Below are positions 3,703-56,214 of a DNA stretch of 64,000 nt, one piece after another (the first letter of the stretch is position 1; each line of letters opens with the position of its first letter). This stretch comes from Acidimicrobiales bacterium (GTDB lineage Bacteria > Actinomycetota > Acidimicrobiia > Acidimicrobiales > SZUA-35). The stretch is taken from assembly GCA_020630195.1 (NCBI GenBank), contig JAHDBV010000004.1:6990-70989 (forward strand). The letters are read 5' to 3'. The translations under genes and the position numbers were made by a program. A model generated the notes under the pieces. The model had not been told where the DNA came from, ran no database searches, and saw only the letters and a list, made by a program, of their open reading frames with translations.

Positions 3703-3899
3703 CGTGGTCTCCCGGGATCTGGCCCCACGCCATGATCGAGGGGCCGGATGATAGGACCGCAGGTCCCTACCGGCCGGTTCGATGCACGTCCTCCGCACCC
3801 CAAGCATGCCGTTCCGTGCCCCGAACCGGTGGGTCGCGGGACGGACGTCACCCGGGCAGATCTGCATGATCCCGGTCAATTCCCACGGAGCGCGGCCGA

Positions 3900-9189: not shown

Positions 9190-9232
9190 GGCCGGGGAAG
9201 CTACACCGCCGCGCTCGTGCGACACTGCCCGA

Positions 9233-10123: not shown

Positions 10124-10177
10124 ACCCGGCCGGCCGGGTGCGATCCGCACCGCGGCGCACCCGGGACTCCGGGGTCG

Positions 10178-14381: not shown

Positions 14382-15046
14382 GGCTCGATCCGGTAGCCGT
14401 GGCCGTGCACGGTGTGGATCAGGCGATCGGCGCCGCCGATGTCGAGCTTGCGGCGCAGGTAGCCGACGTAGACCTCCACCACGTTCGTGCCGCCCTCGAA
14501 CTCGGGCCCCCACACCTGGTCGAGCAGGTAGGGCTTCGAGCAGACACTGCCGGGTTGGCGGCTCAACACCTCGAGCAGGGTGAACTCCCGGCTGGTCAGG
14601 TCGACCGCTTCACCCCGCCGGCGACAGCGACGTTCGTCGAAGTCGATCTCGAGATCGCCGATGATCTGGACCACGGCGTCGCGCGGTCCGGCCCGGCGCA
14701 GCAGCGCCCGGATCCGGGCGGTGAGCACCACGAACGAGAAGGGCTTCGTGAGGTAGTCGTCGGCGCCCGCGTCGAGGCCCTCGGCCACGTCGAACTCGCC
14801 CGCCTTGGCCGTGAGCATCAGGATCGGGGTGGTCGTGCCGCCGGCGCGGAGATCGGCGCACACCCGGTAGCCGTTGCGGCCGGGCAGCATCACGTCGAGC
14901 ACGATCACGCCGTAGTCGACCTCGGTGGCCATCCACACGCCGGTGTCACCGTCGGCCGCGACGTCGACGTCGAGGCCCTCGGCGGCCAGGCCCCGCTCGA
15001 TGGCGGCGGCCACGGCCGGGTCGTCTTCGATCACCAGAACGCGCAC
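14378..15046 (-). CDS. OmpR/PhoB-family response regulator
   Basis: REC domain (MRVLVIEDD...VLDVMLPG...TAK...YLTKPF) plus a winged-helix C-terminus (LTSREFTLLEVL...VVEVYVGYLRRKL...IHTVHGHGY). Confidence 0.95.
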   Translation of the reverse strand: MRVLVIEDDPAVAAAIERGLAAEGLDVDVAADGDTGVWMATEVDYGVIVLDVMLPGRNGYRVCADLRAGGTTTPILMLTAKAGEFDVAEGLDAGADDYLTKPFSFVVLTARIRALLRRAGPRDAVVQIIGDLEIDFDERRCRRRGEAVDLTSREFTLLEVLSRQPGSVCSKPYLLDQVWGPEFEGGTNVVEVYVGYLRRKLDIGGADRLIHTVHGHGYRIEP

Positions 15047-36298: not shown

Positions 36299-36388
36299 CG
36301 GTGCCATCCGGGCTCGGGCCGAAGGACCCTACGTCCCTGTTGCTCCCTCGTTCATGCTGACGGGGGACGAACAGAGACGAGGACATCC

Positions 36389-37405: not shown

Positions 37406-38491
37406 ATGACCCGACGCTCGCCCATCACGACCCGAACGGCGCACCGGACGCTCCGCATGGTGTCCGAGGCCGCCGCGCTCGAGGCGTTGGCCCGAGCCGG
37501 CGCCTCACGGACGGACGGTTCGGTCGACCGGGAGATCGTCCGGTTCGGGCCGGTCGAAGCCCGTCGTGACGGCGCGCAGGTGCATCTCACGGTCACGGCC
37601 TCCGATCGCGGTACGGCCGAGGTGCGGCTCGAGGAGGTCGCGGAGCGGTTGCTGCCCGACGTGATCCGGACGGATCCCGAACGTCCGGTCGCCCCGGGGG
37701 CCGAGTTGCTCCCCGACCTGCGATCGGCATCGGTCGCCGAGGATCTGCGGCGCATCGTCCGATGCCTCGACCTGACGACGCTGCGCGGCGACGACACCCG
37801 GGGTCGCGTGCGCCGCCTCTGCGCGCGGGCCGTCCGTCCGGACGGCACCGACGCCTCGGTCGGGCCCGTGGCGGCGGTCTGTGTCTACCCGAGGCTCGTG
37901 CCGGTGGCGGTCCACGCCACGGCCGGCACGCCGGTTGCCGTCGCGAGCGTCGCCGGATCGTTCCCGACCGGATTGTCGGACCTCGACACCCGTCTGAGGG
38001 ACATCAGCGCCGCGGTCGGCGCCGGTGCGAGCGAGATCGACGTCGTCCTCGATCGGTCGGCGTTCCTCGATGGCCGGGACGACGAGGTGTCGGCCGGTCT
38101 CCTCGCGGCGAGGGAGGTCTCGGCGGGCACGACCCTCAAGGTGATTCTGGAGACGGCCGAGCTCGGCTCGCCGGCGGCGATCGCGGCGGCGGCGGAGCTG
38201 GCCATCGGTTCTGGCGCCGACTTCATCAAGACGTCCACCGGGGCCGTTGGCGGCGCGACGCCGCTGGCCGTGCGGACCATGGCGGAGGTGATCCGGGCGG
38301 AGTCGGAGCGGTCGGGTCGGGTGATCGGCCTGAAGGTGTCCGGTGGTGTGCGAACGGCCGACGAGGCCCTCGGCCACCTCGAGATCATCCGATCGGTGCT
38401 CGGACCTGCGTGGCTCCGTGCCGATCGGCTCCGGTTCGGAGCGTCGTCGTTGCTCGACGATCTACTCGTGGCACTCGACTCGACCGAGTGA
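37406..38491 (+). CDS. deoC: Deoxyribose-phosphate aldolase with ~100-aa N-terminal extension
   Basis: DeoC blocks are CLDLTTL, AAVCVYP, FPTG, EIDVV, LKVILET, FIKTSTG (Schiff-base Lys) and GLKVSGGVRT. Confidence 0.8.
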   Translation: MTRRSPITTRTAHRTLRMVSEAAALEALARAGASRTDGSVDREIVRFGPVEARRDGAQVHLTVTASDRGTAEVRLEEVAERLLPDVIRTDPERPVAPGAELLPDLRSASVAEDLRRIVRCLDLTTLRGDDTRGRVRRLCARAVRPDGTDASVGPVAAVCVYPRLVPVAVHATAGTPVAVASVAGSFPTGLSDLDTRLRDISAAVGAGASEIDVVLDRSAFLDGRDDEVSAGLLAAREVSAGTTLKVILETAELGSPAAIAAAAELAIGSGADFIKTSTGAVGGATPLAVRTMAEVIRAESERSGRVIGLKVSGGVRTADEALGHLEIIRSVLGPAWLRADRLRFGASSLLDDLLVALDSTE

Positions 38492-38535: not shown

Positions 38536-39192
38536 GTGATGGCCGACCTCATCCGTGTCCTCCTGCTCGATGATCACGAGATCGTTCGGCGCGGGGTGAA
38601 GGATCTGCTCGAGGCGGAGGATGATCTCACCGTCGTGGCCGACACCGGCACCGGGGCCGAGGCGATCCGAATCTGTGGTCACACCGACATCGATGTGGCC
38701 GTGCTCGACGTTCGGCTCGAAGAGAGCAACGGCATCGCGGTGTGCCGTGAGATCCGGGCAGCGCATCCGGAGATCGCCTGTCTCATCCTGACGTCGTACG
38801 CGGATGACCAGGCCCTCATCGACGCCTCCGTGGCCGGCGCTGCCGGGTACGTGCTGAAGCAGATCCGGTCCGATGACCTGGTCGAGGCCATCCGGAAGGT
38901 CGCGGCTGGGGCGACGCTGCTCGATGCGGCCCAGGTGCGCCTCGGCATGGAACGACTCCGCGGCACCGACGAGGGCCGGGTCGACCAGCTCACCTCCCAG
39001 GAGCGCCGGATCTTCGACCTCATCGGTGAAGGACGATCGAACCGCCAGATCGCCGACGAGCTCTACCTCGCCGAGAAGACCGTGAAGAACTACGTCTCGA
39101 ACATGCTGGCGAAGCTCGGGATGGACCGACGCACCGAGGCGGCCGCATTCGCGGCCCGCCTCGAGGAGCGCCAGCGGCTCCGGTACGACTGA
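38536..39192 (+). CDS. NarL/LuxR-family response regulator, DosR/DevR-like
   Basis: By recollection of the sequence, it is collinear and highly similar to M. tuberculosis DevR. Shared blocks: LLDDHEIVRRG, DVAVLDVRL..NGI..CR, CLILTSY.D, GA.GYV.K, LT.QER, QIAD.L.LAEKTVKNYVS..LAKLGM.RRT.AA.FA. Confidence 0.9.
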   Translation: MMADLIRVLLLDDHEIVRRGVKDLLEAEDDLTVVADTGTGAEAIRICGHTDIDVAVLDVRLEESNGIAVCREIRAAHPEIACLILTSYADDQALIDASVAGAAGYVLKQIRSDDLVEAIRKVAAGATLLDAAQVRLGMERLRGTDEGRVDQLTSQERRIFDLIGEGRSNRQIADELYLAEKTVKNYVSNMLAKLGMDRRTEAAAFAARLEERQRLRYD

Positions 39193-39598: not shown

Positions 39599-40069
39599 TC
39601 AGGCGTGCGCCCGGAGATGGGCGTCGGTCATGCGGAGTCGATGGGCCAGCTGCCGGGCGATCGCCCGCACCAGCGTCGGATCGGCGTCCATGACGGCGTC
39701 CATCCGGTTGAAGGGGATGACCAGGGCATCGATCTCGGTCGCGGCGGCGACGGTGGCGTTGGCGGGCCGTCGTTCGAACAGGCTCAGCTCGCCCGTGATC
39801 TCGCCGTCGCCGAGGCGTGCGACCTCGGTGGTGCCGACCGTGACGACGGCTTCCCCGGCCACGATCACGAAGAGCTCGGCGTGCAGCCGGCCTTCCTTGA
39901 TCAGCACGGTGCCGGCGGGCACGGTGATCTCGTCCGCCACGTGGGCGAGCTCACGGATCGCCGCGCCATCGGCGTGCTCGAAGATGGGGATCCGTGCGAG
40001 TCGTTCGATCTTCGGGTCGGTGTGGTGGAACATCTCCATGGCCTCCGATGGCTCGTCGAGTGTCACCAT
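39599..40069 (-). CDS. Cyclic-nucleotide-binding domain protein
   Basis: cNMP-binding fold: IPIFEH.D..AI.ELA......VPAGTVLI.EG......FVIV.GEA.V......ARLG.GEI.GELSLF...P..ATV.A.T...ALV. Alternative ATG starts at 40039 and 40033. Confidence 0.8.
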   Translation of the reverse strand: MVTLDEPSEAMEMFHHTDPKIERLARIPIFEHADGAAIRELAHVADEITVPAGTVLIKEGRLHAELFVIVAGEAVVTVGTTEVARLGDGEITGELSLFERRPANATVAAATEIDALVIPFNRMDAVMDADPTLVRAIARQLAHRLRMTDAHLRAHA

Positions 40070-42995: not shown

Positions 42996-43105
42996 GTGAG
43001 GGCTCCGGGTCGGGCGGACAGGGGCTACTCAAGGGGCGGTCCGGGTCCGGTGGCCAGGGACCTCCGACCCTGTTCGCGGATCGCCATCGGCGCTGGGCTG
43101 GTGAC

Positions 43106-43531
43106 ATGACACGCACGATTGTCGGAATCGACGGCTCGGCCTCCTCGGTGGCCGCACTCCGCTGGGCGGTCGATGCCGCCCGGCCCGGCGACGAGATCGT
43201 CGCCGTGATGGCCTGGAGCATCTACCCGGTCGGGGGCCTCGAGGCGCCTGGCATCAATCCCGCCGAGGTGGAGGTGGCGACCCGTCGCGACCTCGCCGAC
43301 GTGCTCGCCCCGGTCGAGGCGCCGGAGGGCGTGACGATCACGTCGTCCGTCGTGCACGGCCGGCCGGCCGGGGTGTTGACGACGGCGTCTCGCGATGCCG
43401 ACCTCGTGGTCGTCGGTCGACGCGGGCTCGGCGGCTTCCTCGGTCTGGTCCTCGGCTCGGTGTCGGACCAGGTCGTCCACCACGCCCGTTGTCCTGTCGT
43501 CGTGGTCTCGGCACCGGACGACGATGCGTGA
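43106..43531 (+). CDS. Universal stress protein (single USP domain)
   Basis: ATG at 43106 (MTRTIVGIDGSASSVAALRWA...LVVVGRRGLGGFLGLVLGSVSDQVVHHARCPVVVV). Confidence 0.9.
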   Translation: MTRTIVGIDGSASSVAALRWAVDAARPGDEIVAVMAWSIYPVGGLEAPGINPAEVEVATRRDLADVLAPVEAPEGVTITSSVVHGRPAGVLTTASRDADLVVVGRRGLGGFLGLVLGSVSDQVVHHARCPVVVVSAPDDDA

Positions 43532-44226
43532 TGACCGTCCCGGGTGAGGTCGTGGCGGCGGTCGAGGATCCTCGTCGACCCGGTCCGGTCGCGGCGGTGG
43601 CGGAGTCGGTCGCTGCGCTGCTCGGTGTTCCGGCCCGGATCCTCCACACCGATGACGACGACGTCGTCAGCCGGGTTCTCGAGGAAGTGCGATCGACCTC
43701 CATGCTGGTGTTGGGGTCGCGTCATGCGAATCGGTGGAGTGGGAAGCACTCCGTGGCCGAACAGTGTCTCGACGGCCATGACGGCCCGACCATGGTGGTC
43801 GGTCCGAGGTCCGCCGGTGCTCTCGGCGAGGGTGACGTGCTCGTGCCGCTCGACGGGTCGTCCGCTGCCCTCGCAGCGGTGCCGTTCGCCCGTGAGCTCG
43901 CCACTCGGCTCGCTCGGGGTGTCTCCACCGTCCGGGTCGTTCCTCCGGATGGGGGCTCTGGAAGGACCTCACCCGAGCCCGTCGAGCCGCACCCGGGCCC
44001 ACTCGACCTCCGCGTCGAGATCGTGGTCTCCGACGACGTGATCGACGGCCTCGCCGAGGTGGTCGCCGAAGCTGATCCAGCATGTGTCGTGATGTCGTCG
44101 CGAGGGGATCGCTCGCATCGCCGATCGACGATCTCGCGAGTCTGTACGGGGCTCATCGCCGCGTCGACCCGGCCGGTCGTCGTCGTCCCCGAGTCGGGTG
44201 GCGAGCCGGTTCAGCGCAACGGCTGA
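43531..44226 (+). CDS. USP-like protein, two degenerate domains
   Basis: The start overlaps the upstream stop (GTGATGA). It has USP-like repeats (...MLVLGSRH...PTMVV; VLVPLDGSSAALAAVPFA...CVVMSSRG...RPVVVV) without a complete ATP motif. Confidence 0.65.
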   Translation: MTVPGEVVAAVEDPRRPGPVAAVAESVAALLGVPARILHTDDDDVVSRVLEEVRSTSMLVLGSRHANRWSGKHSVAEQCLDGHDGPTMVVGPRSAGALGEGDVLVPLDGSSAALAAVPFARELATRLARGVSTVRVVPPDGGSGRTSPEPVEPHPGPLDLRVEIVVSDDVIDGLAEVVAEADPACVVMSSRGDRSHRRSTISRVCTGLIAASTRPVVVVPESGGEPVQRNG

Positions 44227-45245
44227 CTCCACTCGATCCGCGTTCCGCCACCCTGACCGGGACCGATGTGGAAGCTCCCGTCGGCGTCTTCCGCTCGGCT
44301 GGCGAGGTTCCGGAGTCCGTTGCCCGACCCGTCGGTGCGTCCGCTCGTGTCGATGCCCCCCGGGCCGATGCCGTTGTCGGTCACGATCACCTCGACCCGG
44401 TCATCGTCGGCGCGGACCTCGACCTGGGCGGCTGATGCGCTTGCGTGACGGGCCACGTTCGTGAGGGCCTCACCGACGACCGCGGCGAGTTCCTGGGCGA
44501 CGTGTCGTGCCCGGGCGTCGATCCGATGGTCGATGCGCAGCGTCGGCGTGAACCCGAGGGCGGCGGCGGCCCCCACCACGGTGCGAAGCACGAGTTCACT
44601 CGGCGTCTGGTTCGAGGAGTCACCGCCGTGCAGCTCGAAGATCGTCCGCCGGAGCGACGAGATGGCGGTGTCGATGTCGTCGACGGACATCGAGAGCCGA
44701 TCCCGGATGACCGGGTCGACGATCCGAGGCAGAAGCGCCTGGAGGCTCATGCCGGTGGCGAAGAGCTGCTGGATCACCGAGTCGTGCAGGTCGCGGGCGA
44801 TCCGCTCACGGTCGTGCATGAGTTGGAGCAGTTCCTGCGCGCTCTGCAGTTGGAGGTCACCGTGGCGGCGGGCCACGGCGTATCGCACGGCCCGGTCGAC
44901 CGTCTCGACGTCGACGGCCTGCTTCGTGAGGTAGTCCTGAGCGCCGCGCTCCACCGCGGCCTGGGCGGTGCGGGGATCGTCGAGGCCGGTGAGCACCACC
45001 ACGGGGACGTCGGGAGCGACCTCGCCGAGTTTCGCGATCGACGCCAGACCGGAGGCATCGGGGAGTGACAGATCGAGCAGGATCGCGGCGAAGTCGCCGG
45101 GCAGCGCGGCGCAGGCCGACTCGAGATCGGTGACGTGCTCGACGTCGTAGTCGGTGTCGGCCCGCTCGAGCATCCGTCGCATGGTGCGGGCGTCGAGCGG
45201 GTTGTCTTCGACGAGCAGCACCCGGTGGACGTCGGCGGTACTCAC
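44211..45245 (-). CDS. Hybrid REC - HisKA_3 - HATPase histidine kinase (receiver domain as the only input domain)
   Basis: The N-terminal REC is VLLVEDNPLD...ILLDLSLPD...VVVLTG...DYLTK. The HisKA_3 H-box is RERIARDLHDSVIQQL. HATPase motifs are EALTNVARHA, DNGIG and GNGLRNL. The GTG start overlaps the upstream stop (GTGA). Confidence 0.9.
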   Translation of the reverse strand: MSTADVHRVLLVEDNPLDARTMRRMLERADTDYDVEHVTDLESACAALPGDFAAILLDLSLPDASGLASIAKLGEVAPDVPVVVLTGLDDPRTAQAAVERGAQDYLTKQAVDVETVDRAVRYAVARRHGDLQLQSAQELLQLMHDRERIARDLHDSVIQQLFATGMSLQALLPRIVDPVIRDRLSMSVDDIDTAISSLRRTIFELHGGDSSNQTPSELVLRTVVGAAAALGFTPTLRIDHRIDARARHVAQELAAVVGEALTNVARHASASAAQVEVRADDDRVEVIVTDNGIGPGGIDTSGRTDGSGNGLRNLASRAEDADGSFHIGPGQGGGTRIEWSQPLR

Positions 45246-45673
45246 CGGTCGGTGGCGTCGCCGGGGACCGTGGCGATCGAGAACCAGAAGCCATCGATGG
45301 CCTGGACGACGTCGACCCAGCCCGCGAGGCCCACGGGCTTGGTCACGTAGGCGTTGGCGCCGAGGCCGTAGGCGGCTTCGACGTCGCTGGTCGAAGCCGA
45401 GCTCGTGAGCACCACCACCGGGATCGACCTGAGGTCGTCATCGCTGCGCATCGCGTCGAGCACGGCCCGCCCGTCGAGCCCGGGCAGGTTGAGGTCGAGC
45501 AGCACCAGCTCGGGGCGGGGGCGTTCGGCCAGTCGCTCGAGCGCGGCCTCGCCGGAGGTGACGTGCTCGATCTCGTTGGCGAGCTGGATCTTCGCTGCGG
45601 CGTTGATCGTCGACCGGGCGTCGAGGAGGTTGTCCTCGACGAGCAGGACGCGGATGGATCGGGAGTCAGGCAT
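45242..45673 (-). CDS. Single-domain (CheY/Rcp1-like) response regulator
   Basis: ATG at 45673. VLLVEDNLLDAR...LVLLDLNLPGLDG...PVVVLTSS...NAYVTKP. There is no output domain. It overlaps the upstream kinase stop by 8 nt. Confidence 0.9.
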   Translation of the reverse strand: MPDSRSIRVLLVEDNLLDARSTINAAAKIQLANEIEHVTSGEAALERLAERPRPELVLLDLNLPGLDGRAVLDAMRSDDDLRSIPVVVLTSSASTSDVEAAYGLGANAYVTKPVGLAGWVDVVQAIDGFWFSIATVPGDATDR

Positions 45674-47273
45674 CGTGGGTCTCGATGATCGGGAGGGTGA
45701 AGATGAACGTGGCGCCATCGCCGGGTTCGGAATGCACCGAGATGGTTCCGCCGTGCCGCTCGACGATCCGCTGGCACAGCGCGAGCCCGATCCCGACGCC
45801 GTCGTAGCCGGCATGGGCCCGCTTGAAGAGCTCGAAGACCCGCTCGTGGTGGGCGGCATCGATCCCGACGCCGTTGTCGGCCACGGCGATCCGCCAGGTG
45901 CCATCGGCCTCGTCGCCGGCGATGGAGATCACCGGCGGCCGATCATCGGCCCGGTATTTGATCGCGTTCTCGACGAGGTTCTGGAGGAGCTGCTCGAGCA
46001 TGGTCGCGTGTCCACGCACGGTCGGGAGGGCCCCGAGTTCGATCCGTCCGCCGAGGTCGTCGAGCGTCGGGCGGACGCGGGCCACGACGAGATCGGCGAG
46101 GGCGTCGAGGTCGACCGGAGTCCCGTCCTCGATCTGGGGCCCCTGGACACGTGAGTAGGACAGCAGCGCCTGGATGAGACGTTCCATCCGCCCGACCGCG
46201 TCCGACGTGAGCTGCTTCAGCTCGAGCGCCTCGTCGTCGAAGCCCGTGCCGATGGTGTTCGTGAGGTGCTCGTCGAGCAGGTCCATTCCCTGGCGGACGT
46301 TGCGGAGCGGCGTCTGGAGATCGTGGGAGGCGATGTAGGCGAACTGCTCGAGATCGCGGTTCGAGCGGGCGAGATCGGCCATCGACCGGCGCAGCTCGGC
46401 GGTGCGTTCGGCGACGCGGGACTCGAGTACGTCGTTGGCCTCGGTGAGTCGGCGTTCAGCCTCGACCCGTTCGGTCAGGTCGTGGAGCACACCCGTGAAA
46501 ACCCGGCCGTTCGGGGTGACGACCTCGCTGACCGCGAGCGCGACGGGGAACGTCGTGCCATCGGCCCGCAGCGCCGTGACGTCCCGGCCGATGCCGATGA
46601 TGTGCGGTTCACCCGAGGTGAGATAACGCTCGAGATAGCCGGCGTGCTCGGAGCGGAACGGCTCCGGCATGAGTTTGGTGACGTTCCGGCCGACCAGCTC
46701 GCTCGCAGGCCATCCGAACAGCTCCTCGGTGGCGTCGTTCACCTCGAGCACGAGTCCGGTCTCGTCGATGAGAACGATCGGGTCGACAGCGGTCCGGAGC
46801 ACGGCCCGGAGCAGGTCCTCCGATCGGGTGGCGCCCCGGATCCGCTCGCGTTCCCGGGTGACGTCCCGGGCGAGGAGAACGACCCGGTCACCGTCCGGGA
46901 TGAGGGTCCACCACCCGAATCGGCCGGCCTCGGTCGTGAAGAGCCGCCGGGGTTCGGTGTCGGCCGCGGCCGCCTGGACCAGTTCGGTGAACGTCCGCTC
47001 GTCGGGCTCGCCGTCGTCGCCGAGCACGGTCGGCTCGAGCACGTTGCCGACCGCGAGCCCCCAGGACGCGCCGACGGCGTTCGTCGCGAGGATCCGTCCC
47101 CCGGTGTCGACCACGACCACCGGATCCGGCCCGGCGGTCGTCCACGGGGGGAGGTCGATGTCGATGTTGTTCTCCCCCGGCATCCGCCCATGGTCGACCA
47201 TCGGGACCCGTGTGGCAACCATCCGCGACGACGTGGCCGCGACGGTCTTTGGGCCCTGTTCGAGCGTTGCCAT
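45666..47273 (-). CDS. PAS-PAS sensor histidine kinase; second PAS is FixL-type (heme/O2-sensing-like)
   Basis: By recollection, the second PAS (LMPEPFRSEHAGYLERYLTSGEPHIIGIGRDVTALRADGTTFPVALAVSE...VFTGVLHDLTE) is near-collinear with the Bradyrhizobium FixL heme domain. The match includes the proximal His (codon 46644-46646). HisKA H-box ASHDLQTPLRNV, HATPase N/G boxes (NLVENAIKY, DNGVGI, GIGLALC). The start is uncertain (ATGs at 47273, 47222, 47201, 47183). Confidence 0.85.
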   Translation of the reverse strand: MATLEQGPKTVAATSSRMVATRVPMVDHGRMPGENNIDIDLPPWTTAGPDPVVVVDTGGRILATNAVGASWGLAVGNVLEPTVLGDDGEPDERTFTELVQAAAADTEPRRLFTTEAGRFGWWTLIPDGDRVVLLARDVTRERERIRGATRSEDLLRAVLRTAVDPIVLIDETGLVLEVNDATEELFGWPASELVGRNVTKLMPEPFRSEHAGYLERYLTSGEPHIIGIGRDVTALRADGTTFPVALAVSEVVTPNGRVFTGVLHDLTERVEAERRLTEANDVLESRVAERTAELRRSMADLARSNRDLEQFAYIASHDLQTPLRNVRQGMDLLDEHLTNTIGTGFDDEALELKQLTSDAVGRMERLIQALLSYSRVQGPQIEDGTPVDLDALADLVVARVRPTLDDLGGRIELGALPTVRGHATMLEQLLQNLVENAIKYRADDRPPVISIAGDEADGTWRIAVADNGVGIDAAHHERVFELFKRAHAGYDGVGIGLALCQRIVERHGGTISVHSEPGDGATFIFTLPIIETHDA

Positions 47274-47316
47274 CGGTGGGACAACGGAGTGAGACACCAG
47301 CGTTCCTGGAGGAATC

Positions 47317-48888
47317 ATGTCCGTGCTCGAGACAGCCACCGTCGACGAACCCGTCGCCGTTCGTCATCCGTCGCCACCGGTTCAACCCGCCTCGTCGGGC
47401 TTCGTGCTGGCGATCGTGTTGGGCCTGGGGGCGATCTTCATGCTCGGCCTGGTGGCGATCGCCGGCATCGGTCTCGCCACGGCCGACGGTGCGCCACCGA
47501 CGCCATCGACGACGATCGACGTGTCGCTGAGTGAGTTCCGGATCGATGGTGCACTCGTGGCGCCGGCCGGAGAGGTGACCCTGCGGATCACGAACGCGGG
47601 CTCGATGTCGCACAACGTGGCGGTCACCGAGCTCGACGTCGTCAGCCAGAACGTCGGCCCGGGTGGGGTGACCGAGCTGGCGCTCGGCGAGCTCGCGCCC
47701 GGCGCGTACGAGCTGTTCTGCGACATCGCCGGCCATCGCGAGTCCGGCATGGTCACCACGCTGACGATCACGGGCGACGGGTCTGAACTCGCCGCCGACG
47801 GACACGCCGGCCATGGCCACGGTGCCGACACCGACTGGCAGGCGATGGACGAGGCGATGATGGCGACGATGCTCGCCTTCCCGGCTGAGACCGAGGGCAC
47901 CGGCAATCCGGTGCTCGAACCGACCGAGATCCTCGCCGACGGCACCAAGGTCTTCGATCTGACCGCCGAGATCGTCGACTGGGAGGTCGAGCCGGGCAAG
48001 TTCGTGGAGGCCTGGACGTACAACGGCGTCGTGCCGGCCCCCCAGATCCTGCTGGATCGGGGCGACACCGTCGACATCCGCATCCACAACGAGCTCCCGA
48101 TGAGCACCGACGTCCACTGGCACGGGGTACACACCCCGAACGACATGGACGGCGTGGCGCCCTACACCCAGGAGATGATCACGCCGGGTGAGACCTTCAC
48201 CTACTCGTTCACCGCCCACCACGATGCGATCGGGATGTATCACGCCCACCACCACGGGCAGATGCAGGTCGTGAACGGCATGTTCGGTGCCATCCGGATC
48301 GGGGAGAACCCCGTTCCCTACGGCGGCACCTTCAGCGGCGTGTACATCCCGGAGGACCTCGAGCTCGCCGCCGACATCCCGATGGTGCTCAACGACGCCG
48401 GCACGATCGGTCTGAGCCTCAACGGCAAGAGCTTCCCGGCGACCGAACCTCTCGTGCTCGAGCAGGGCGACTGGGCGTCGGTCACGTACTACAACGAAGG
48501 GCTCCAGATCCATCCGATGCACCTGCATCAGTTCCCGCAGCTGGTCTACGCGAAGGACGGCGTGCCGCTCGACCATCCGTATTGGGTCGACACACTGAAC
48601 GTGGCACCCGGCGAGCGGTACACCGTGCTGTTCCGGGCCGACGATGCGGGCACCTGGGTCTGGCACTGCCACATCCTGAACCACGTCGAGCGTGACACCG
48701 GGATGTTCGGCATGGTCACGGCGATCGTCGTCACACCGAACCCCGGGTTCGATCCCGAGGAGAATCCGGTGGCGCCGAGCAACTGGCGCAATGTCGGCAC
48801 CAGCGCCGACGGCCCGGTGACGGCCGACGTCGATCGCGATCACGGAGCGGGCGACGGCGCACACACCCACAGCGCCGACGGCGCCTGA
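47317..48888 (+). CDS. Membrane-anchored multicopper oxidase with N-terminal cupredoxin (type-1 Cu) domain
   Basis: TM anchor FVLAIVLGLGAIFMLGLVAIAGI. The cupredoxin has H/C/H/M ligands (SMSHNV...FCDIAGHRESGM). The MCO copper motifs are HWHG, MYHAHHHG, HPMHLH and WHCHILNHVERDTGM. Confidence 0.85.
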   Translation: MSVLETATVDEPVAVRHPSPPVQPASSGFVLAIVLGLGAIFMLGLVAIAGIGLATADGAPPTPSTTIDVSLSEFRIDGALVAPAGEVTLRITNAGSMSHNVAVTELDVVSQNVGPGGVTELALGELAPGAYELFCDIAGHRESGMVTTLTITGDGSELAADGHAGHGHGADTDWQAMDEAMMATMLAFPAETEGTGNPVLEPTEILADGTKVFDLTAEIVDWEVEPGKFVEAWTYNGVVPAPQILLDRGDTVDIRIHNELPMSTDVHWHGVHTPNDMDGVAPYTQEMITPGETFTYSFTAHHDAIGMYHAHHHGQMQVVNGMFGAIRIGENPVPYGGTFSGVYIPEDLELAADIPMVLNDAGTIGLSLNGKSFPATEPLVLEQGDWASVTYYNEGLQIHPMHLHQFPQLVYAKDGVPLDHPYWVDTLNVAPGERYTVLFRADDAGTWVWHCHILNHVERDTGMFGMVTAIVVTPNPGFDPEENPVAPSNWRNVGTSADGPVTADVDRDHGAGDGAHTHSADGA

Positions 48889-48941: not shown

Positions 48942-50180
48942 TCAGGCGGCGGCGCGGGTCTTGCGGAGCACCGGGTCGGCGGCTGCCAGGGTCCGGTCGG
49001 CCAGTCGCAACACCGTGCCGGCGGCGCCCGGGGTCTCGGAGTCGACGAGGTTGCCCATCACCTGGAGGGTGATGTCGGCGATGGCCTGGGTGCCCACGGC
49101 CACCCGCAGCCCGGAGCGCAGGATCCAGGGGTGGCCGATGAGGAACGAGAAGCGGCGGCCGGTGCGGAGGAAGGCATCGAAGCGTTCCCCGACCTCCACG
49201 TCGTATCGCTCGGCGGCGGTGGCCGGGTCGGCGAGGAAGAGGTCGCTGAGGAGCATCCCCGACTCGAGGCCGTAGTCGATGCCCTCGCCGTTCATCGGGT
49301 TGACGAGACCGGCGGCGTCGCCCACGGCCACCCAGCCGGGGCCGTGGCGCTTCTGGGTCGACATCGGCAGACGCCACGCCCGGGGCCGTTCCTCGAACTC
49401 GCCCAGTTCCCACTCGTCCTGCACGAGCCCGCGGTAGGCCTCGAGCAGCTTGTTGAGGTTGAGCTTCTTGAAGCCCTTCATGGTCGACAGTGCGCCACAA
49501 CCGATGTTCACGGTGCCGTCGCCGGCGGGGAACATCCAGCCGTAGCCCGGCACGGCGGTGCCGTGTTCGTCCGAGAGCGTGAGGCACGCCTCGAGGTGGG
49601 CATCCGCGTGGCGGGGCGAGGTCGCGTAGGTGCGGATGGCGAGGCCGAACGGCTCGTCCTCCATGCGGACCGCGCCCAGCATGCGGGCGACCTTGCCGGG
49701 GGCGCCGGTGGCGGCGACGGTCATGGGGGCGCGCACCTCACCACCGGGGTGACGGACGCCGATCACGCGGTCGCCGTCGAGCACCGGTTCGGCTTCGACC
49801 GAATAGCGGATGTCGGCACCGGCCTCGGCGGCGGCGTCGATGAGTGCGGCGTCGAGGCGGCGGCGGGGCCAGACGGCACCGTGCCCCGGGAAGCGGGCCG
49901 AGGAGGGCCAATCGAGTTCGCGACGGGTCTTGCCGGCGATCATCCGCAGGCCCTGGATCCGGTGGGCGTCGTCGAGGTCGATGTCGAGTTCGTTCAGCGC
50001 CGCCACGGCGCGGGGAGTGAGGCCGTCGCCGCAGACCTTGTCGCGGCCGTGGGCGCCCTTCTCGAACACGATCACCTTCGCTCCGCCACGGGCGGCGCGA
50101 ATGGCGGTGGCGGCCCCCGCGGGCCCGCCGCCGATCACGACGACGTCGGCGGTTTCGTGAGCGTTGCCGGTGGTGTCCAC
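48942..50180 (-). CDS. Geranylgeranyl reductase family FAD-dependent oxidoreductase (MenJ-like)
   Basis: GTG at 50180 is preceded by GGAGGG. FAD motif DVVVIGGGPAGAATA, and CGDGLTPRAV typical of the family. About 412 aa. Confidence 0.8.
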   Translation of the reverse strand: MDTTGNAHETADVVVIGGGPAGAATAIRAARGGAKVIVFEKGAHGRDKVCGDGLTPRAVAALNELDIDLDDAHRIQGLRMIAGKTRRELDWPSSARFPGHGAVWPRRRLDAALIDAAAEAGADIRYSVEAEPVLDGDRVIGVRHPGGEVRAPMTVAATGAPGKVARMLGAVRMEDEPFGLAIRTYATSPRHADAHLEACLTLSDEHGTAVPGYGWMFPAGDGTVNIGCGALSTMKGFKKLNLNKLLEAYRGLVQDEWELGEFEERPRAWRLPMSTQKRHGPGWVAVGDAAGLVNPMNGEGIDYGLESGMLLSDLFLADPATAAERYDVEVGERFDAFLRTGRRFSFLIGHPWILRSGLRVAVGTQAIADITLQVMGNLVDSETPGAAGTVLRLADRTLAAADPVLRKTRAAA

Positions 50181-50308
50181 CCCTCCAGCGTGCCCGATCC
50201 CGGCGGTCTTTCCCTGATCGAACGACCGTGTCGCCCGACACGTGGTCGCCGGGTCGATCGGGCGGCCCACTGGACCGCTGGCCCGCCCCGCGGGACACTG
50301 GCTGCGTG

Positions 50309-51859
50309 ATGCAACAGTTGAGCGGGCTGGATGCGAGCTTCCTCTCGATGGAGAGCAGCACGACGGTGGGTCATGTCACCGGCGTGTTGTTCCTCGATCC
50401 GTCGACCTCACCGGAGCCGTGGACCTTCGAACGATTCCAGCGCCACCTGCGCTCGGTGCTGGCCGATCTCGGCCCGTTCAGCCGCAAGTTGGTGGAGGTC
50501 CCCTTCGGGCTCGACCGGCCGTATTGGATCAACGATCCCGATGTCGACTTCGACTACCACGTGCGCCATGTCGCCGTGCCGGGGGACGGCACGCGGGATG
50601 ATCTGGCCGATCTGGTGGCCCGGATCCACGCCCGCCCACTCGACCGTCGACGTCCGCTCTGGGAGGCCTACGTCGTCGACGGGGTCTTCGGCGACAAGAT
50701 CGCCCTGATCACCAAGATCCACCACGCCGCCATCGACGGGCTCTCCGGGCAGGAGATCCTCGCCGCGCTCGTCTCGCTCGATCCGGCCGAGCCGGTGAAG
50801 GACGACCCGGGCACGATCGAACGCGAAGAGGCGCTCTCGTCCGAGGAGGTGCTCGGTCGGGCACTGCTCGGGCTCGTGTCGTCGCCGGTCCGCATGATCC
50901 AGGTGGGCACCCAACTCGCCCGGGCCCTGCCGGTGCTCGGCCCCAGCCTCGGCCGTCTGTCGCCGGTGGCTCGGGGCGACGAGTCGCGTCGGGAGCTCGT
51001 GTCCCGTGTCGGTTCGGCGCCTCGCACCCCGTTCAACGCCATGATCGGCCCGCATCGGCGCTGGTCGTTCGTGTCGGTGCCGCTCGCCGATGTGAAGGCG
51101 ATCAAGAACGAAGCCGGCACCACCGTGAACGACGTCGTCCTGGCGATCGTGTCCGGCGTGCTGCGCCGCTGGCTCGAGGAGAACGGCGGCGTTCCGGACC
51201 GACCGCTCGCGGCGATGGTGCCGCTCTCGGTCCGCCGTCCGGATCAGGCCAACGCGGTCGGCAACTTCGTCTCGTCGACGATCGCCACCCTCGCCACCCA
51301 CCTCGAGTCGCCGGGTGAGCGCCTGTCGGCGATCCACGACGGCATGGTGCACGCGAAGACGACGTCGGGTGCGCTCGGCGCCGACATCCTCGCTGACATC
51401 ACCCAGGTGGCCCCGCCAGCGGTGGCCGCACTCGCCGGCCGGTTGATCGCCTCGACGAAGCTCGCCGACCGGATGACGCTGCCGTTCAACGTGGTGGTGT
51501 CGAACGTGCCCGGCCCGCCCGTGCCGCTCTACCTGGCCGGTGCCGAGGTGATCGGCCACTACCCGGTGTCGGCCATCGTCGACGGGGTCGGTCTGAACAT
51601 CACGGTGGTGTCGACCAACGGCAATCTCGACTTCGGCTTCGTGTCCGATCGGGATCTGGTGGCCGACCTGTGGGCGATGTCCGACGTCATCCCGGAGGTC
51701 GTGGCCGAGCTCGCCGAGTCGGTCGGGGCGACCCTGCCGTCGGCGGCTGCCGCGGCCCCGGCGAAGAAGAAGCCCGCCGCGAAGAAGGCCGCGCCGAAGA
51801 AGGCCACCAAGAAGCCGGCGGCCAAGAAGAAGCCGGCGGCGAAGAAGTCGGCCGGCTGA
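50309..51859 (+). CDS. Wax ester synthase / diacylglycerol acyltransferase (WS/DGAT) with C-terminal Lys/Ala/Pro-rich tail
   Basis: ATG at 50309 (MQQLSGLDASFLSMES). Active-site HHxxxDG (HHAAIDGLSG). C-terminal family blocks NVPGP..PLY.AGA. The last 37 aa are PAKK-type repeats. Confidence 0.9.
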   Translation: MQQLSGLDASFLSMESSTTVGHVTGVLFLDPSTSPEPWTFERFQRHLRSVLADLGPFSRKLVEVPFGLDRPYWINDPDVDFDYHVRHVAVPGDGTRDDLADLVARIHARPLDRRRPLWEAYVVDGVFGDKIALITKIHHAAIDGLSGQEILAALVSLDPAEPVKDDPGTIEREEALSSEEVLGRALLGLVSSPVRMIQVGTQLARALPVLGPSLGRLSPVARGDESRRELVSRVGSAPRTPFNAMIGPHRRWSFVSVPLADVKAIKNEAGTTVNDVVLAIVSGVLRRWLEENGGVPDRPLAAMVPLSVRRPDQANAVGNFVSSTIATLATHLESPGERLSAIHDGMVHAKTTSGALGADILADITQVAPPAVAALAGRLIASTKLADRMTLPFNVVVSNVPGPPVPLYLAGAEVIGHYPVSAIVDGVGLNITVVSTNGNLDFGFVSDRDLVADLWAMSDVIPEVVAELAESVGATLPSAAAAAPAKKKPAAKKAAPKKATKKPAAKKKPAAKKSAG

Positions 51860-51868
51860 GGCCGGCGG

Positions 51869-52996
51869 CTACTCCCAGAGCGAGACGACGAGCCCGCGGT
51901 CGGCGGGGATGTCCCCCTGCACGACCGACACCCAGGCCCCGGCGACACTCTCGGCCGACACGGCGTGGTCGACCGCGATCCAGTCGGCCGCGGCCTCGAT
52001 GAAGGCGGCCCAGGAGGTGGCGAGGCGGGCCTCGTACTCCTCGCGGCCCCACTCTCCGATGCGGTTGACGATGTGGTCGGGGGCGAAGAAGAACTCGCGG
52101 TCGGGGCCGGGCATCTCGGCCTGCCCACCGAGGGCTTCCCAGTGGGTGCCGCCCACGATGACCGAGCGCAGGAGGTGGGTGCCGGCAGCGGTGTGGGCCT
52201 CGGCGACCACCTCGCTGTTGCCGGCGAAGTCGATGAGGGCCGACGGGCCGACGGGTGACCAGTCGGCGATGGCGTCGTAGCCGATCACCTGGTCGTACAC
52301 GCCGGTGCTCTCCACCTGCTCGATCCGGCTCGGTGAGGTGAACCCGACGACCCGGGCCCGGCCGCTCGCGTGCAGCAGGTGGGCGAGTGCGAGGGCCGTC
52401 TTCGACGAGGCGCTCGTGAGGGCGACCTCGGCGAGCTCGTCGCCGGTGGCGAGGGCGGCGTCGATGAGGAACGAGGTGGTGAACAGTGGCCGGAACAACA
52501 TCTGGTCGTCCTCGGTGCCGATCTCGAAGCCCGGGTCGGCGGCGACGCGGGTGTAGCCGTTGTAGACCGGCGGCAGGGCGGCGCGGTGCTCGGCGGCGTC
52601 GACGAACGACGTCGGGCCGACCTTGGCCGGAGTGACCGTGAGGTGGGTCGACATCGGGAAGTAGCCGTAGATGCGTTCGCCGACGGCGAGTTCGTCGACG
52701 GTCGACTCGCTGATGTCGGCGAAGCCCCACACCGGGACGCGGCCCCAGCCCTCGGGGGCGGGGAAGAACTTCCAGTAGCCCATCATCTCGCCGAAGGCGG
52801 CGTAGGTGACGTTGTTGGCCGTGAGGCTGAAGGTGTCGATGCGCAGCCGCACCTCACCATCGGCGAGGGGAGCGAGCTCCTCGGTGACGATGTCGGTCCG
52901 GGCGATGTCGCCGGGGGCGACCAGGACGTGTTCGTTGCGGGCTTCGTGAGCGGCGTCGTCGGCGATGGCCATGCCGGCGACGCTAGCGACGAACAT
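51869..52996 (-). CDS. DUF2855 family protein (MDR-like fold, function unknown)
   Basis: The pattern ...FSLTANNVTYAAFGEMMGYWKFFP...WGRVPVWGFADI..S....L.VGERIYGYFPM..HL is as in DUF2855 proteins. The start may be the ATG at 52972. Confidence 0.65.
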   Translation of the reverse strand: MFVASVAGMAIADDAAHEARNEHVLVAPGDIARTDIVTEELAPLADGEVRLRIDTFSLTANNVTYAAFGEMMGYWKFFPAPEGWGRVPVWGFADISESTVDELAVGERIYGYFPMSTHLTVTPAKVGPTSFVDAAEHRAALPPVYNGYTRVAADPGFEIGTEDDQMLFRPLFTTSFLIDAALATGDELAEVALTSASSKTALALAHLLHASGRARVVGFTSPSRIEQVESTGVYDQVIGYDAIADWSPVGPSALIDFAGNSEVVAEAHTAAGTHLLRSVIVGGTHWEALGGQAEMPGPDREFFFAPDHIVNRIGEWGREEYEARLATSWAAFIEAAADWIAVDHAVSAESVAGAWVSVVQGDIPADRGLVVSLWE

Positions 52997-54070: not shown

Positions 54071-54084
54071 GGGCCTGAAGTCCC
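54071..54084. promoter_or_regulatory. DosR-box-like element GGGCCTGAAGTCCC upstream of the tandem USP gene
   Basis: It matches 12 of 14 positions of the core of the M. tuberculosis DosR consensus (GGGACTWWAGTCCC). It lies 37-50 nt upstream of the ATG at 54034 on the minus strand. Confidence 0.4.
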
Positions 54085-54164: not shown

Positions 54165-54782
54165 GCGTCGTATGTGTGGAGTGGGTCGACATCGGAAGGG
54201 CGCGGGTTGGAACGTCCGGATGGTGGACGGTTCGCGGCGACGGTGTTCGACAGTGCGGCGGTCGAGATCGATGTGACGTTCACTGAGGACTGGTCGGGTC
54301 CGGTGCACGTGTATTCGTTGGATTGGGATTGGGGTGGTCGTGCTCAGTCGGTGTCGGTGGGTGATGGTGCTGCGGTTGGGGTGAGCTCGTTCGGTGGTGG
54401 CGTGTGGACCTCGGCGATGGTTGATGCCGTTGCGGGTGAGACGGTGCGGGTGCGTGTGGAGCGAACCGCCGGCGCGAACGCGGTGGTGTCGGCGGTGTTG
54501 CTTGGTGATGCGGTGCCGTCGGGTGGTGCGGTGGCGTTGCCGCCGGTCGAGTCGGGTTCGGGTGATTGGTCGGGTCTGGTTGGTGCTGATGGGGCGTTCG
54601 TGGCCGGCCGGTTGCCGTCGCCGACGTTGCCGGGTGGTGTGGCGTCGTTCTCTGTGGCTGGTGGTGCGGCCTATACGTGGAACTGGGACTCGTCGGAAGA
54701 TCGGGCTGTCGAGGATCCGGGTCGGGACGGGCGCATCGGCGCCGCCTGGTACGCGGCTGGTGAGGTCGCGATCGATGCCCGA
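54165..54782 (+). pseudogene. Internal fragment of a larger secreted-protein gene (one full and one truncated repeat of a W/D-rich beta domain), no start or signal peptide
   Basis: The repeat is ASYVWSGSTSEGRGLE...AATVFDSAAVEIDVTF...VHVYSLDWDWGGRAQSVSVGD...VRVRVERTAGANAVVSAVLLGD. A second copy starts GAAYTWNWDSSEDRAVED...AAWYAAGEVAIDA and then decays. The strand is strongly GT-rich with T-ending codons, unlike the rest of the window. No plausible start codon precedes it. Confidence 0.5.
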
Positions 54783-55126
54783 TGTATTGGTCGATTGCGG
54801 TGGCTCGGCGGAGGAAGTCCGTGCGATCGCTGCAGCGGTCGCTGGGTTCTGCGCCGCTTCGCCTTGGTGGCCGTTGGGAGAGTGACGGGTGTGAGCCTTC
54901 CGTGGTGGTGGACGGCGCCGGCAGAACAGCCGCCCGGTTCGAGATGGGTGTCATCGGGGCTCACTACGATCGACGCCGTCGAACGTCAACGTCGCGATCG
55001 CCGTGGACGATGGTCGTGACATCGGTTGGGATGCCTCGAGCGGCTCGCAAACGAGCTTCTACATCGTGACCGTCAAGCCGGGTGAAGGCGTGTGGACTGC
55101 TCATCCGGGGCTGCGAGGGTGGGCGG

Positions 55127-55435
55127 ATGATTGCACTGTCGATACGTCGGAGCCTCTTCGATCCGGGCAGCGAGGTCGATCTCGTCACCGGGATCACGAT
55201 TCCCGACTGGGATGACCTCGAGGGTGTGAGCCTTCTCCGCTCTGTGGACTACTACGAAGACTCAGCCTTCAACTACCACCTCCTTGAGAAGCTCCTCGAG
55301 GAAGTGGATGGCTGGTTGGCCTATGAACGAGGTCGCTCGGACTCGGAAGACCGTTGTGGGACGATCGCTGCGGTGCGAGAGGCCCTGGCCGGGGCCTACA
55401 GCCGGCGACAGTACGCGGTCTTCTTGTCGCTCTAG
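55127..55435 (+). CDS. Hypothetical small protein (102 aa)
   Basis: ATG at 55127 is preceded by GGGTGGGCGG. The sequence is protein-like and non-repetitive (MIALSIRRSLFDPGSEVDLVTGITIPDWDDLEGVSLLRSVDYYEDSAFNYHLLEKLLEEVDGWLAYE...). GC is lower than its surroundings. Confidence 0.5.
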   Translation: MIALSIRRSLFDPGSEVDLVTGITIPDWDDLEGVSLLRSVDYYEDSAFNYHLLEKLLEEVDGWLAYERGRSDSEDRCGTIAAVREALAGAYSRRQYAVFLSL

Positions 55436-55619
55436 CTCGGGAAGACCCCGGATCGTCGTCCTCCCCGCCCGAGATCCTGTCGGCGCCCTCTCGGAAGATC
55501 CTCCACTGCGAGGTGACCGAGCACCGCGACCCCGCACGTCGGCGATGATCAGAGACGGGCGCCCATCGGGGTGTGACAGTGGTGCATGCCTAGCGCCATT
55601 TGGCGGGTAGGAGGCTCTA

Positions 55620-56162
55620 GTGGGAGAGAGTGCAGTGCTGGGTTCAGCCGACGAGGCCGGCAAGAAGGAGTACGTCGGGTATGTCTGGGTCGATGATGAG
55701 CCGGGGATCAGGTTGAGTGTCTGGGCCGAGTCAGCTACCGAGGCCGGTGAGCTCATTGACGCCGAGTTTGGCGAAGGCAGCGTTCATTCCGTCTGGAACG
55801 AAGAAGACGCGTCCCGGCCGCGATCAGCTGAGGAAGTCAGTGAGCCTTCCGGCGCTGAGCACGTAGGGAGCGAAGATGTCGGGGAGGTGGAGCCGCCAGA
55901 GGCGCGCCCGCATCGCAGACAGCCAGGCATAACTACGACGTGGACCATGAGTCTTCGTGTGTGGTGTCCTCGTTGCGGCCAGGGCTGGGTGCAGCTGTAC
56001 GACGACGGTTCGCGTCGTCCCTTCTGGGTTTGCGACGAGTGCGAAGGTGTCTGGGTGCGGGACGAGATCGACCCCTCGCCCGACGATGATCTCGAGACAT
56101 TCCTCCGCCGTGAGCGAGGCGGTGGTGGGTGGTCGTCGCTGCGTCTCTGGGATGCCGGATGA
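55620..56162 (+). CDS. Hypothetical protein with C-terminal CxxC...CxxC zinc-ribbon
   Basis: The GTG at 55620 lies 5 nt after a strong AGGAGG. The N-terminal module is KEYVGYVWVDDEPGIRLSVWAES.... The C-terminal module is VWCPRCGQGWVQLYDDGSRRPFWVCDECEGVWV. No family recognised. Confidence 0.5.
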   Translation: MGESAVLGSADEAGKKEYVGYVWVDDEPGIRLSVWAESATEAGELIDAEFGEGSVHSVWNEEDASRPRSAEEVSEPSGAEHVGSEDVGEVEPPEARPHRRQPGITTTWTMSLRVWCPRCGQGWVQLYDDGSRRPFWVCDECEGVWVRDEIDPSPDDDLETFLRRERGGGGWSSLRLWDAG

Positions 56163-56214
56163 CAGAGTCAGGTCGTCCGGCGCTCGTTTCCGCTGAGCGC
56201 CCCTCCCCGTCGCC

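Follow-up and report, generated by a model that had tools for sequence, protein, structure and literature searches.

In mycobacteria the kinases DosS and DosT sense gas directly through a haem-binding GAF domain, and to our knowledge DosR-type control of dormancy has been studied almost only in these bacteria. A stretch of 64,000 nucleotides from an Acidimicrobiales bacterium (GenBank assembly GCA_020630195.1, contig JAHDBV010000004.1, positions 6,990 to 70,989 of the forward strand; G+C about 70%), hereafter called the window, raises the question of how a DosR-like regulator may be addressed when its gene has no kinase next to it. The regulator gene ends at 39192, 5,019 bp from HK2, the last of three minus-strand open reading frames (ORFs) spread over 44211–47339 that encode a sensor histidine kinase (HK1), a stand-alone receiver domain protein (REC) and a second histidine kinase whose input domain is itself a receiver (HK2). 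It is argued here, with a probability of roughly 0.6, that these proteins would form a three-tier oxygen-sensing cascade in which HK1 acts on HK2, and HK2 on the DosR-like regulator, feeding a dormancy regulon. An earlier note on this DNA had proposed the core of this relay, from a sensor kinase to the receiver of HK2 and on through its HisKA_3 domain to the DosR-like protein, and among the wirings considered it appears to be the one best supported by conserved gene order, by the classes of the domains and by systems of the same layout, on which analogy the reading also draws.

The Signalling Operon

The three genes overlap end to end, as the earlier note had stated, and both junctions were confirmed in the sequence: the tetranucleotide GTGA at 45242–45245 is common to the stop of the REC gene and the GTG start of HK2, and ATGCCTGA at 45666–45673 is common to the stop of HK1 (45666–45668) and the ATG start of the REC gene (45673). 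Catalytic residues are intact across HK1, REC and HK2. A phmmer scan of all ORFs in the window found no HisKA_3 kinase besides HK2 and no GerE-type regulator besides the DosR-like one, which agrees with the earlier statement that the window holds a single NarL-type regulator, 5 kb off. Every NCBIfam model stayed below its cut-off for these four proteins (HK1, REC, HK2 and the regulator), which are therefore not assigned to any named equivalog. Neither Rfam nor tRNA scans gave a match in the window, and a promoter and terminator scan of 43900–47500, uninformative at 70% G+C, returned no sites.

HK2 (44211–45245, minus strand, 344 aa) is, by its domains and its predicted fold, a receiver-controlled kinase with a DevS-like HisKA_3 core. 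Pfam finds three domains only, namely a receiver (44916–45221, residues 9–110, Response_reg 5e-19, with Asp58), a HisKA_3 dimerization and histidine phosphotransfer (DHp) domain (44625–44810, residues 146–207, 6e-13, with His154 and the DxxxQ motif D155/Q159) and HATPase_c (44217–44495, residues 251–343, 1e-10), so that the earlier description of a kinase with a receiver as its sole input, joined to a HisKA_3 DHp domain, was upheld. Pfam detects no GAF domain, and the receiver occupies the N-terminus. None of 20 homologs (43–52% identical) departs from HK2 at E13, D14, D58, K108, D155, Q159, N263, D290 or G292; T86 and H154 recur in 90% or more of them, and the spacing from K108 to H154 is free of insertions and deletions. 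In the AlphaFold model (predicted local distance difference test score 86.5) helix alpha5 of the receiver continues as one helix, residues 113–174, into the DHp domain. The best full-length fold match to this model is LvrB (8vc9, E 3e-16), followed by DesK, while among solved structures the ATPase domain comes closest to DosT (3zxq) and DevS (3zxo). By the same comparisons HK2 is neither an LvrB ortholog, as NCBIfam NF047466 (LvrB) gives 41 bits against a cut-off of 500, nor a member of the DosS/DosT group, as it is without GAF domain.

The HK2 core taken alone is 42–48% identical to HisKA_3 kinases of 330–365 aa that carry a single GAF or a single PAS domain, some of them labelled DevS by the Joint Genome Institute, and it is as close to these as to its receiver-bearing orthologs. 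In a library of representatives at 50% identity, 462 clusters match HK2 at E ≤ 1e-30, and about 30 of the best 150 clusters are compact full-length Rec-HisKA_3 proteins. The nearest relatives come from metagenome-assembled genomes of Acidimicrobiia, and the exact protein is present in the Logan assemblies SRR14415275 and SRR14415273.

HK1 (45666–47273, minus strand) is a soluble sensor histidine kinase of up to 557 aa if the longest ORF is taken. Its start is uncertain between 47273 and 47183. Starts at 47339 and 47297 are unlikely because a divergent oxidase gene begins at the ATG at 47317, behind a GGAGGA ribosome-binding site, which leaves 47273, the choice of the earlier note, or the ATGs at 47222, 47201 and 47183. 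The G+C content of third codon positions in the HK1 frame is 0.60–0.65 above about 47250 and exceeds 0.8 only below that point. Numbered from the longest ORF, the protein has a FixL-type haem-PAS (46479–46811, residues 177–287, Pfam PAS 6e-23), a HisKA domain (46143–46352, residues 330–399, 3.6e-6, with His339 in ASHDLQTPLR) and HATPase_c (45687–46007, residues 445–551, 3e-27). An additional N-terminal PAS domain (about 46845–47135) reaches 23.3 bits with PAS_4 against a cut-off of 23.1 and has no counterpart in any ortholog or related locus; by this comparison it is marginal and lineage-specific. Of the earlier label of a PAS-PAS HisKA kinase, the haem-PAS and the HisKA domain thus stand and the first PAS domain is doubtful.

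Residues 174–300 match the haem domains of FixL (8js5, E 1e-33; 1dp6, E 4e-32), and in an alignment of 15 orthologous HK1 PAS domains the proximal haem histidine is invariant and the arginine of IIGIGR, the counterpart of the distal arginine of FixL, is found in no fewer than 90% of them. HK1 is accordingly predicted to bind haem in this domain. For the kinase core, on the other hand, the best matches are 8f71 and bacteriophytochrome kinases (E 1e-39 to 1e-30), whereas the FixL core in 4gcz gives only 7e-14. The NCBIfam model of LvrA gives the core 141 bits, below its cut-off, and sens_FixL_Rhizob gives 174 bits against a cut-off of 850, with only the PAS domain matched. To judge from these matches HK1 is a chimera of a FixL-like sensor and a phytochrome/LvrA-type transmitter of the kind that pairs with Rcp-type receivers, and the name FixL-like, used earlier for the whole protein, suits the sensor and not the transmitter.

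The gene between the two kinases (45242–45673, minus strand, 143 aa) was already recognised as a stand-alone receiver, and it has a single Pfam domain (Response_reg 1.5e-18). It has the acidic pair, the phosphoacceptor aspartate, the threonine and the lysine, and a FWF motif at its end. Its best solved relatives are 5te9 (2e-29), RcpA 1k68 (5e-24), Rcp1 1i3c (1.5e-22) and RphyB 4zyl. It is 36% identical to the receiver of HK2, with which it has the stretch RVLLVEDNxLDAR in common, the beta1-alpha1 region that contacts kinases, and from these resemblances both receivers are assigned to the Rcp type. The transmitter class of HK1 therefore suggests that its phosphate would be passed to Rcp-type receivers, which makes a stronger case for the two receivers than for the regulator as its targets. 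FixT, a single-domain receiver that inhibits FixL in Caulobacter, binds an Fe-S cluster through cysteines (PMC7078487); a receiver of this kind was ruled out for REC, which is without cysteine.

The predicted target of HK2 is the DosR/DevR-like response regulator (38539–39192, plus strand), which consists of a receiver and a GerE helix-turn-helix domain. It matches M. tuberculosis DevR (3c3w) with E 1e-60 and 51% identity over 207 residues, and the recognition helix AEKTVKNYVS is identical in the two proteins. Its gene is the last of an operon that encodes an acetyl-CoA hydrolase/transferase family protein, a 2-hydroxyacid dehydrogenase, a DeoC/LacD-type aldolase (37457–38491, plus strand) and the regulator, and it neighbours the aldolase gene and that of a CBS protein. 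In one related locus (L010, 9243–9980) such an aldolase gene adjoins HK2, and in another (L003, 7498–8235) it adjoins HK1, which links the two operons that are separate here.

Gene Order in Related Genomes

The neighbourhoods were compared over 17 distinct Acidimicrobiia loci, the window included, which were obtained by a genome scan, by tblastn mapping and from annotated contigs. HK1 lies in the operon of HK2 in 14 of the 17. In 12 of these 14 HK1 is directly upstream, and in the other two (L012, L015) a DUF5671 gene stands between HK1 and HK2. Two further loci (L013, L089) have HK1 divergent from HK2 within 1.5–3 kb, and in one (L010) it is not in the flank. The stand-alone REC is present in 11 loci and absent from six. 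HK1 directly abuts HK2, with no stand-alone REC between them, in L003, L004 and L014, and in these three as well as in L012 and L015 the receiver of HK2 is therefore the sole neighbouring receiver.

An ortholog of the regulator, 59–67% identical, was found within the fetched flank in 11 of the 17 loci, again counting the window. It is convergent to HK2 at a distance of only 11–59 nt in L004, L007 and L011, and lies 0.6–5.4 kb from HK2 in L009, L010, L012, L013, L014, L015 and L087. In more distant relatives (31–34% identical; L016–L018, L020, L021, L023 and L024), which come from metagenome-assembled genomes of Terriglobia and other Acidobacteriota, Planctomycetota and Nitrospira, a NarL-type regulator gene comes immediately after the Rec-HisKA_3 gene, in the same orientation; in two of them (L016, L020) a kinase with an HK1-like core and then a single REC precede the Rec-HisKA_3 gene, and in L024 a single REC does so. 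The earlier argument that a HisKA_3 domain implies a NarL-type partner is not exclusive, since FixL, a HisKA kinase, phosphorylates FixJ, a regulator of the NarL/FixJ type. Synteny in the relatives supports HK2 as a possible kinase of the DosR-like regulator.

Two loci carry kinases with a related core and another kind of input. In L014 a kinase of 953 aa with the order PAS-PAS-PAS-GAF-HisKA_3 and an HK2-like core (3367–6228) lies 2.5 kb upstream of HK1-HK2 and near the DosR-like regulator, and several kinases may converge on one regulator. In a locus of the Ilumatobacteraceae (L084) a PAS-HisKA_3 kinase related to the HK2 core (P0136), in which the haem histidine is kept, lies between a regulator 55% identical to that of the window and a multicopper oxidase gene (9069–10448), which follows the kinase gene and is 46% identical to the oxidase gene that is divergent from HK1 in the window. 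From these similarities the P0136 locus is read as a one-step version of the HK1-HK2 system and serves as a Rosetta-stone-like link.

Candidate Sites for the Regulator

The window contains many genes of the kinds found in the DosR regulon: six universal stress protein (USP) genes and genes for a CBS protein, a Pyridox_ox_2 protein, a ribosome hibernation factor, a phosphofructokinase, a WS/DGAT protein, a SulP transporter and a cNMP-binding protein. Palindromes of the form GGGNC-N4-GNCCC, which resemble the DosR box, lie in non-coding DNA in six of seven cases, and such DNA makes up 17% of the window. Strict boxes are found at 21171, upstream of the hibernation factor gene; at 31599, between a USP gene and a phosphoenolpyruvate carboxykinase gene that are divergent; at 36316–36329, between the acetyl-CoA hydrolase/transferase family gene and the genes for the 2-hydroxyacid dehydrogenase, the DeoC aldolase and the regulator; at 43057–43070, in the divergent promoter of the Pyridox_ox_2 gene and a USP gene pair; and at 54071, before a tandem USP gene. 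The phosphofructokinase gene is preceded by a relaxed match at 28596, and the stretch from 19000 to 54300 also has a box at 19582 and weaker ones at 30190 and 34927.

The box at 36316 could serve autoregulation of the DosR-like regulator. Between HK1 and the divergent multicopper oxidase gene a box with one mismatch, CGAACAGGGCCCAAAGACCGTC (47244–47257, minus strand), is a candidate for a site of feedback; its flank CGAACAGGG recurs at the strict boxes of 43057 and 54071. In four related loci (L003, L008, L011 and L013) strict boxes that are nearer to the mycobacterial consensus (e.g., GGGACGTTGGTCCC) are located 60–200 bp upstream of HK1. The boxes before HK1 in these four loci and before the regulator operon suggest that the regulator acts on the sensor operon as well as on its own, in a positive feedback.

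The palindromes between 19000 and 54300 are often preceded by CA and almost only intergenic, and they front genes for USPs, the hibernation factor, phosphofructokinase, phosphoenolpyruvate carboxykinase, the Pyridox_ox_2 protein and the 2-hydroxyacid dehydrogenase. By its gene content and palindromes this stretch of about 35 kb looks like a DosR-type regulon island.

The Proposed Relay and Its Alternatives

From the domain identities, catalytic residues, gene overlaps, neighbourhoods and box positions observed we infer the following course of phosphotransfer. Low oxygen would lead to autophosphorylation of HK1 through its haem-PAS, a sign that is taken by analogy with FixL. Phosphorylated HK1 would then serve two Rcp-type receivers, the stand-alone REC and the N-terminal receiver of HK2. 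In HK2 the phosphorylated receiver would act through the continuous helix, and the DevS-like HisKA_3 core would toggle between phosphatase and kinase states as in LvrB, after which phosphorylated HK2 would pass its phosphate to the DosR-like regulator 5 kb off. The regulator would bind the GGGNC-N4-GNCCC boxes before the USP, hibernation factor and Pyridox_ox_2 genes, the last of which heads the cluster with the CBS gene, and possibly at the relaxed match before the phosphofructokinase gene, while boxes before its own operon and before the sensor operon would close a positive feedback. The stand-alone REC would compete for the phosphate of HK1 and as a phosphate sink may set a threshold and speed the shut-off; it is probably dispensable, because six relatives are without it.

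Several observations weigh against this cascade. The regulator gene of the window belongs to another operon, 5 kb from HK2; where the two genes adjoin in relatives they are convergent and not co-transcribed; and the regulator was not found in the fetched flanks of six loci, one contig being too short to judge. HK2 may take other inputs, because L010 has HK2 without HK1 nearby, and it need not be the only kinase of the regulator, given the additional PAS-GAF-HisKA_3 kinase of L014. The box before HK1 in the window has one mismatch, and it would lie inside the gene if HK1 starts at 47273. Neither form of the box exceeds chance in the window, as the exact M. tuberculosis sequence GGGAC-N4-GTCCC with at most one mismatch has 5 matches where 12 are expected, and the relaxed GGGNC-N4-GNCCC has 7 where 8 are expected, so that only the intergenic placement of the boxes and their recurrence in orthologous loci are informative. 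Receiver phosphorylation may act on HK2 in either direction; in CheS3 it follows a different logic (PMC3868531).

The place of the stand-alone REC and the part played by HK2 could both be read in other ways. It is conceivable, though improbable, that the system is branched, so that the output of HK1 is the stand-alone REC, acting through protein contacts, while the receiver of HK2 is an intramolecular sink phosphorylated by the histidine of HK2 itself or by small donors and HK2 senses its signal otherwise. The HK1 core and REC do make a canonical pair of the phytochrome-kinase/Rcp class, and L010 keeps HK2 without HK1. If REC were the output, however, one would hardly look for loci in which HK1 comes directly before HK2 with no stand-alone REC (L003, L004, L014) or with only the DUF5671 gene between (L012, L015); HK2 is moreover without any other input domain, and in LvrB, its closest structural match, the receiver is an input fed by a separate kinase (PMC13269768). 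Unlikely too is the idea that HK2 is mainly a phosphatase, or one of several kinases, and that this operon only modulates the output of a regulator served chiefly by a DosS/DosT-like GAF or PAS HisKA_3 kinase encoded elsewhere in the genome. M. tuberculosis uses two kinases, kinases that join the same core to one GAF or one PAS domain are common among related bacteria, a PAS-GAF-HisKA_3 kinase stands beside the module in L014, and the DxxxQ phosphatase motif of HK2 is invariant. Yet His154 and the ATP-binding motifs are conserved as well, which argues for real kinase activity, and in L004, L007 and L011 HK2 is the sole kinase that adjoins the regulator.

Two further wirings change the final acceptor or leave HK2 out of the main path, and both are judged very unlikely. 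HK1 might pass its phosphate straight to the DosR-like regulator, in the manner of FixL and FixJ, with REC and HK2 as feedback modulators only. HK1 has a FixL-type haem-PAS, and FixJ is a regulator of the NarL/FixJ type; in Caulobacter FixL is inhibited by the single-domain receiver FixT (PMC7078487). The transmitter of HK1, however, matches phytochrome-type cores (1e-30 to 1e-39) far better than it does the FixL core (7e-14), the NCBIfam FixL model reaches 174 of the 850 bits needed, and REC, without cysteine, could not bind an Fe-S cluster as FixT does. Alternatively HK1 might act on the receiver of HK2, and HK2 in turn on the stand-alone REC, the DosR-like regulator being unrelated. CheA3, CheS3 and CheY3 offer a model for such an order (PMC3868531), and the three genes are translationally coupled. 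This would require a HisKA_3 kinase to serve a receiver whose Rcp type fits the HisKA class of HK1 instead; it would also leave HK2 without its acceptor in the six relatives that keep HK2 and lack the stand-alone REC, and a NarL-type regulator adjoins Rec-HisKA_3 genes in several phyla. The cascade from HK1 through HK2 to the DosR-like regulator is therefore preferred.

Relation to Known Systems

The earlier note had implied that a kinase gated by a receiver is an unusual design. Receiver-input kinases are, on the contrary, a recognised and common class, of which LvrB is the structural prototype and PhcR another named example (PMC13269768). LvrA and LvrB of pathogenic Leptospira are one close parallel. 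HK2 has the same order of receiver, signalling helix, DHp and catalytic ATP-binding domain as LvrB, its top full-length fold match; the core of HK1 resembles that of LvrA (141 bits), and a PAS kinase is encoded beside the receiver-gated kinase in both systems. The DHp domain of HK2 is nevertheless of the HisKA_3 class (DesK/DevS-like) and that of LvrB of the HisKA class, LvrA is a hybrid kinase and HK1 is not, and the partner of LvrB is the anti-sigma factor LvrC (PMC13269768), where a DosR-type DNA-binding regulator is predicted for HK2.

The same layout of four parts is found in the Lhf system of Rhodopseudomonas palustris, with the phytochrome-type kinases BphP2 and BphP3, the single Rcp-type receiver LhfD, the receiver-gated kinase LhfE and the DNA-binding regulator LhfA (PMC6879726). 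LhfD is dispensable and has been described as a phosphate sink, and the action of the BphP kinases on LhfE is unresolved (PMC6879726). The input there is a bilin phytochrome and not a haem-PAS, and the genes controlled are those for light harvesting and not a dormancy-type regulon. In Rhodospirillum centenum it was shown experimentally that CheA3 phosphorylates the receiver of CheS3, and CheS3 alone phosphorylates the final regulator, in a system that also controls a dormancy programme, the formation of cysts (PMC3868531). CheA3 is a chemotaxis-like CheA kinase and the final acceptor is a single-domain CheY.

The output side resembles the DosS/DosT-DosR system of M. tuberculosis, given the 51% identity of the regulator to DevR, the ATPase domain of HK2 that is closest to DosT and DevS, and a neighbourhood rich in genes of the DosR-regulon type. 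It differs from it in that the GAF domain is missing, haem sensing would fall to another protein, a PAS kinase, and the HisKA_3 core would be reached through a receiver. With FixL-FixJ of rhizobia and Caulobacter the system has in common the haem-PAS with its proximal histidine and distal arginine; the transmitter of HK1 is of another class, and there is neither an adjacent FixJ nor a FixT-type Fe-S receiver. A literature search for DosR together with FixL, Acidimicrobiia or kinases with an N-terminal receiver found no description of the HK1-HK2-DosR wiring within the literature searched. As far as these searches reach, what is new is the combination of a FixL-type haem sensor on a phytochrome-type transmitter with a HisKA_3 receiver-gated kinase and a DosR-type output. 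The design of a kinase-to-kinase relay through a receiver-gated kinase is already known, and this is not a new kind of system.

Neighbouring Genes

The gene divergent from HK1 (47317–48888, plus strand) encodes a membrane-anchored, cupredoxin-fused two-domain multicopper oxidase (Pfam; laccase 2zwn, 1e-41). A role as the nitrite reductase NirK was considered for it and rejected, as two-domain laccases are its nearest relatives of solved structure and the NirK model gives 83 against 296 bits; by sequence the oxidase is laccase-like and not clearly NirK. On the other side of the operon two USP genes with overlapping stop and start codons (43106–43531 and 43531–44226, plus strand) are convergent with HK2, the 3′ ends of HK2 and the second USP gene overlapping by 16 nt (44211–44226). 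That these ORFs at 43.1–44.2 kb are one frameshifted gene was discarded, since public gene calls show two genes with the same stop/start overlap. A stand-alone cNMP-binding protein of 144 aa (39599–40033, minus strand) is encoded in a Pyridox_ox_2-SulP-cNMP-CBS cluster that is convergent with the regulator gene.

Beyond the oxidase gene follow genes for a MenJ-like protein of the geranylgeranyl-reductase family (48942–50270, minus strand; 252 bits, below the equivalog cut-off of 700), a WS/DGAT wax-ester or triacylglycerol synthase (50228–51859, plus strand) and a DUF2855 protein (51869–52996, minus strand). This set recalls the lipid storage and menaquinone remodelling of mycobacterial dormancy. 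A segment of about 2 kb (54300–56200) has a lower G+C content of 0.65, a strong GC skew of +0.21, no ORF with the third-position G+C signature of this genome and no Rfam or tRNA match, and by its composition may be degraded or foreign. The window has just one further two-component pair (12864–15046, minus strand), a HAMP-HisKA kinase and an OmpR-type regulator with overlapping ORFs, which is conventional and unrelated to the HK1-REC-HK2 operon. In three related loci a gene of about 500–550 aa for a Zeta_toxin/AAA_33 P-loop kinase-like protein adjoins the HK1/HK2 module (L003, 11083–12681; L087, 3929–5416; L088, 8129–9778), and none was noticed around the module of the window.

Implications for DosR-Type Control

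The window and at least 16 related loci point to a different arrangement of DosR input in a large and mostly uncultured class of actinobacteria, in which the same output is apparently fed by a separate haem-PAS sensor through a receiver-controlled kinase, while close lineages carry one-step versions with PAS or GAF domains. It is tempting to speculate, though we hold the idea only tentatively and think it somewhat more doubtful than not, that the DevS-like HisKA_3 core serves Acidimicrobiia as a plug-in module with a single input slot that takes a GAF domain, a haem-PAS or a receiver, and that in the receiver version an entire oxygen-sensing two-component pair, made up of a FixL-type sensor with a phytochrome-type transmitter and of a decoy receiver, was spliced in before the DosR pathway, which with feedback through the boxes on the sensor and regulator operons would give a thresholded and possibly bistable switch from hypoxia to dormancy. 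Such a wiring is not known to have been described for any DosR system. The value of these loci is comparative and mechanistic: they would extend the recently solved mechanism of LvrB to the HisKA_3 class, and they provide a natural series for asking how input modules are swapped on a fixed kinase core and what an extra phosphotransfer tier and a decoy receiver may add, be it a threshold, faster kinetics or the integration of signals.

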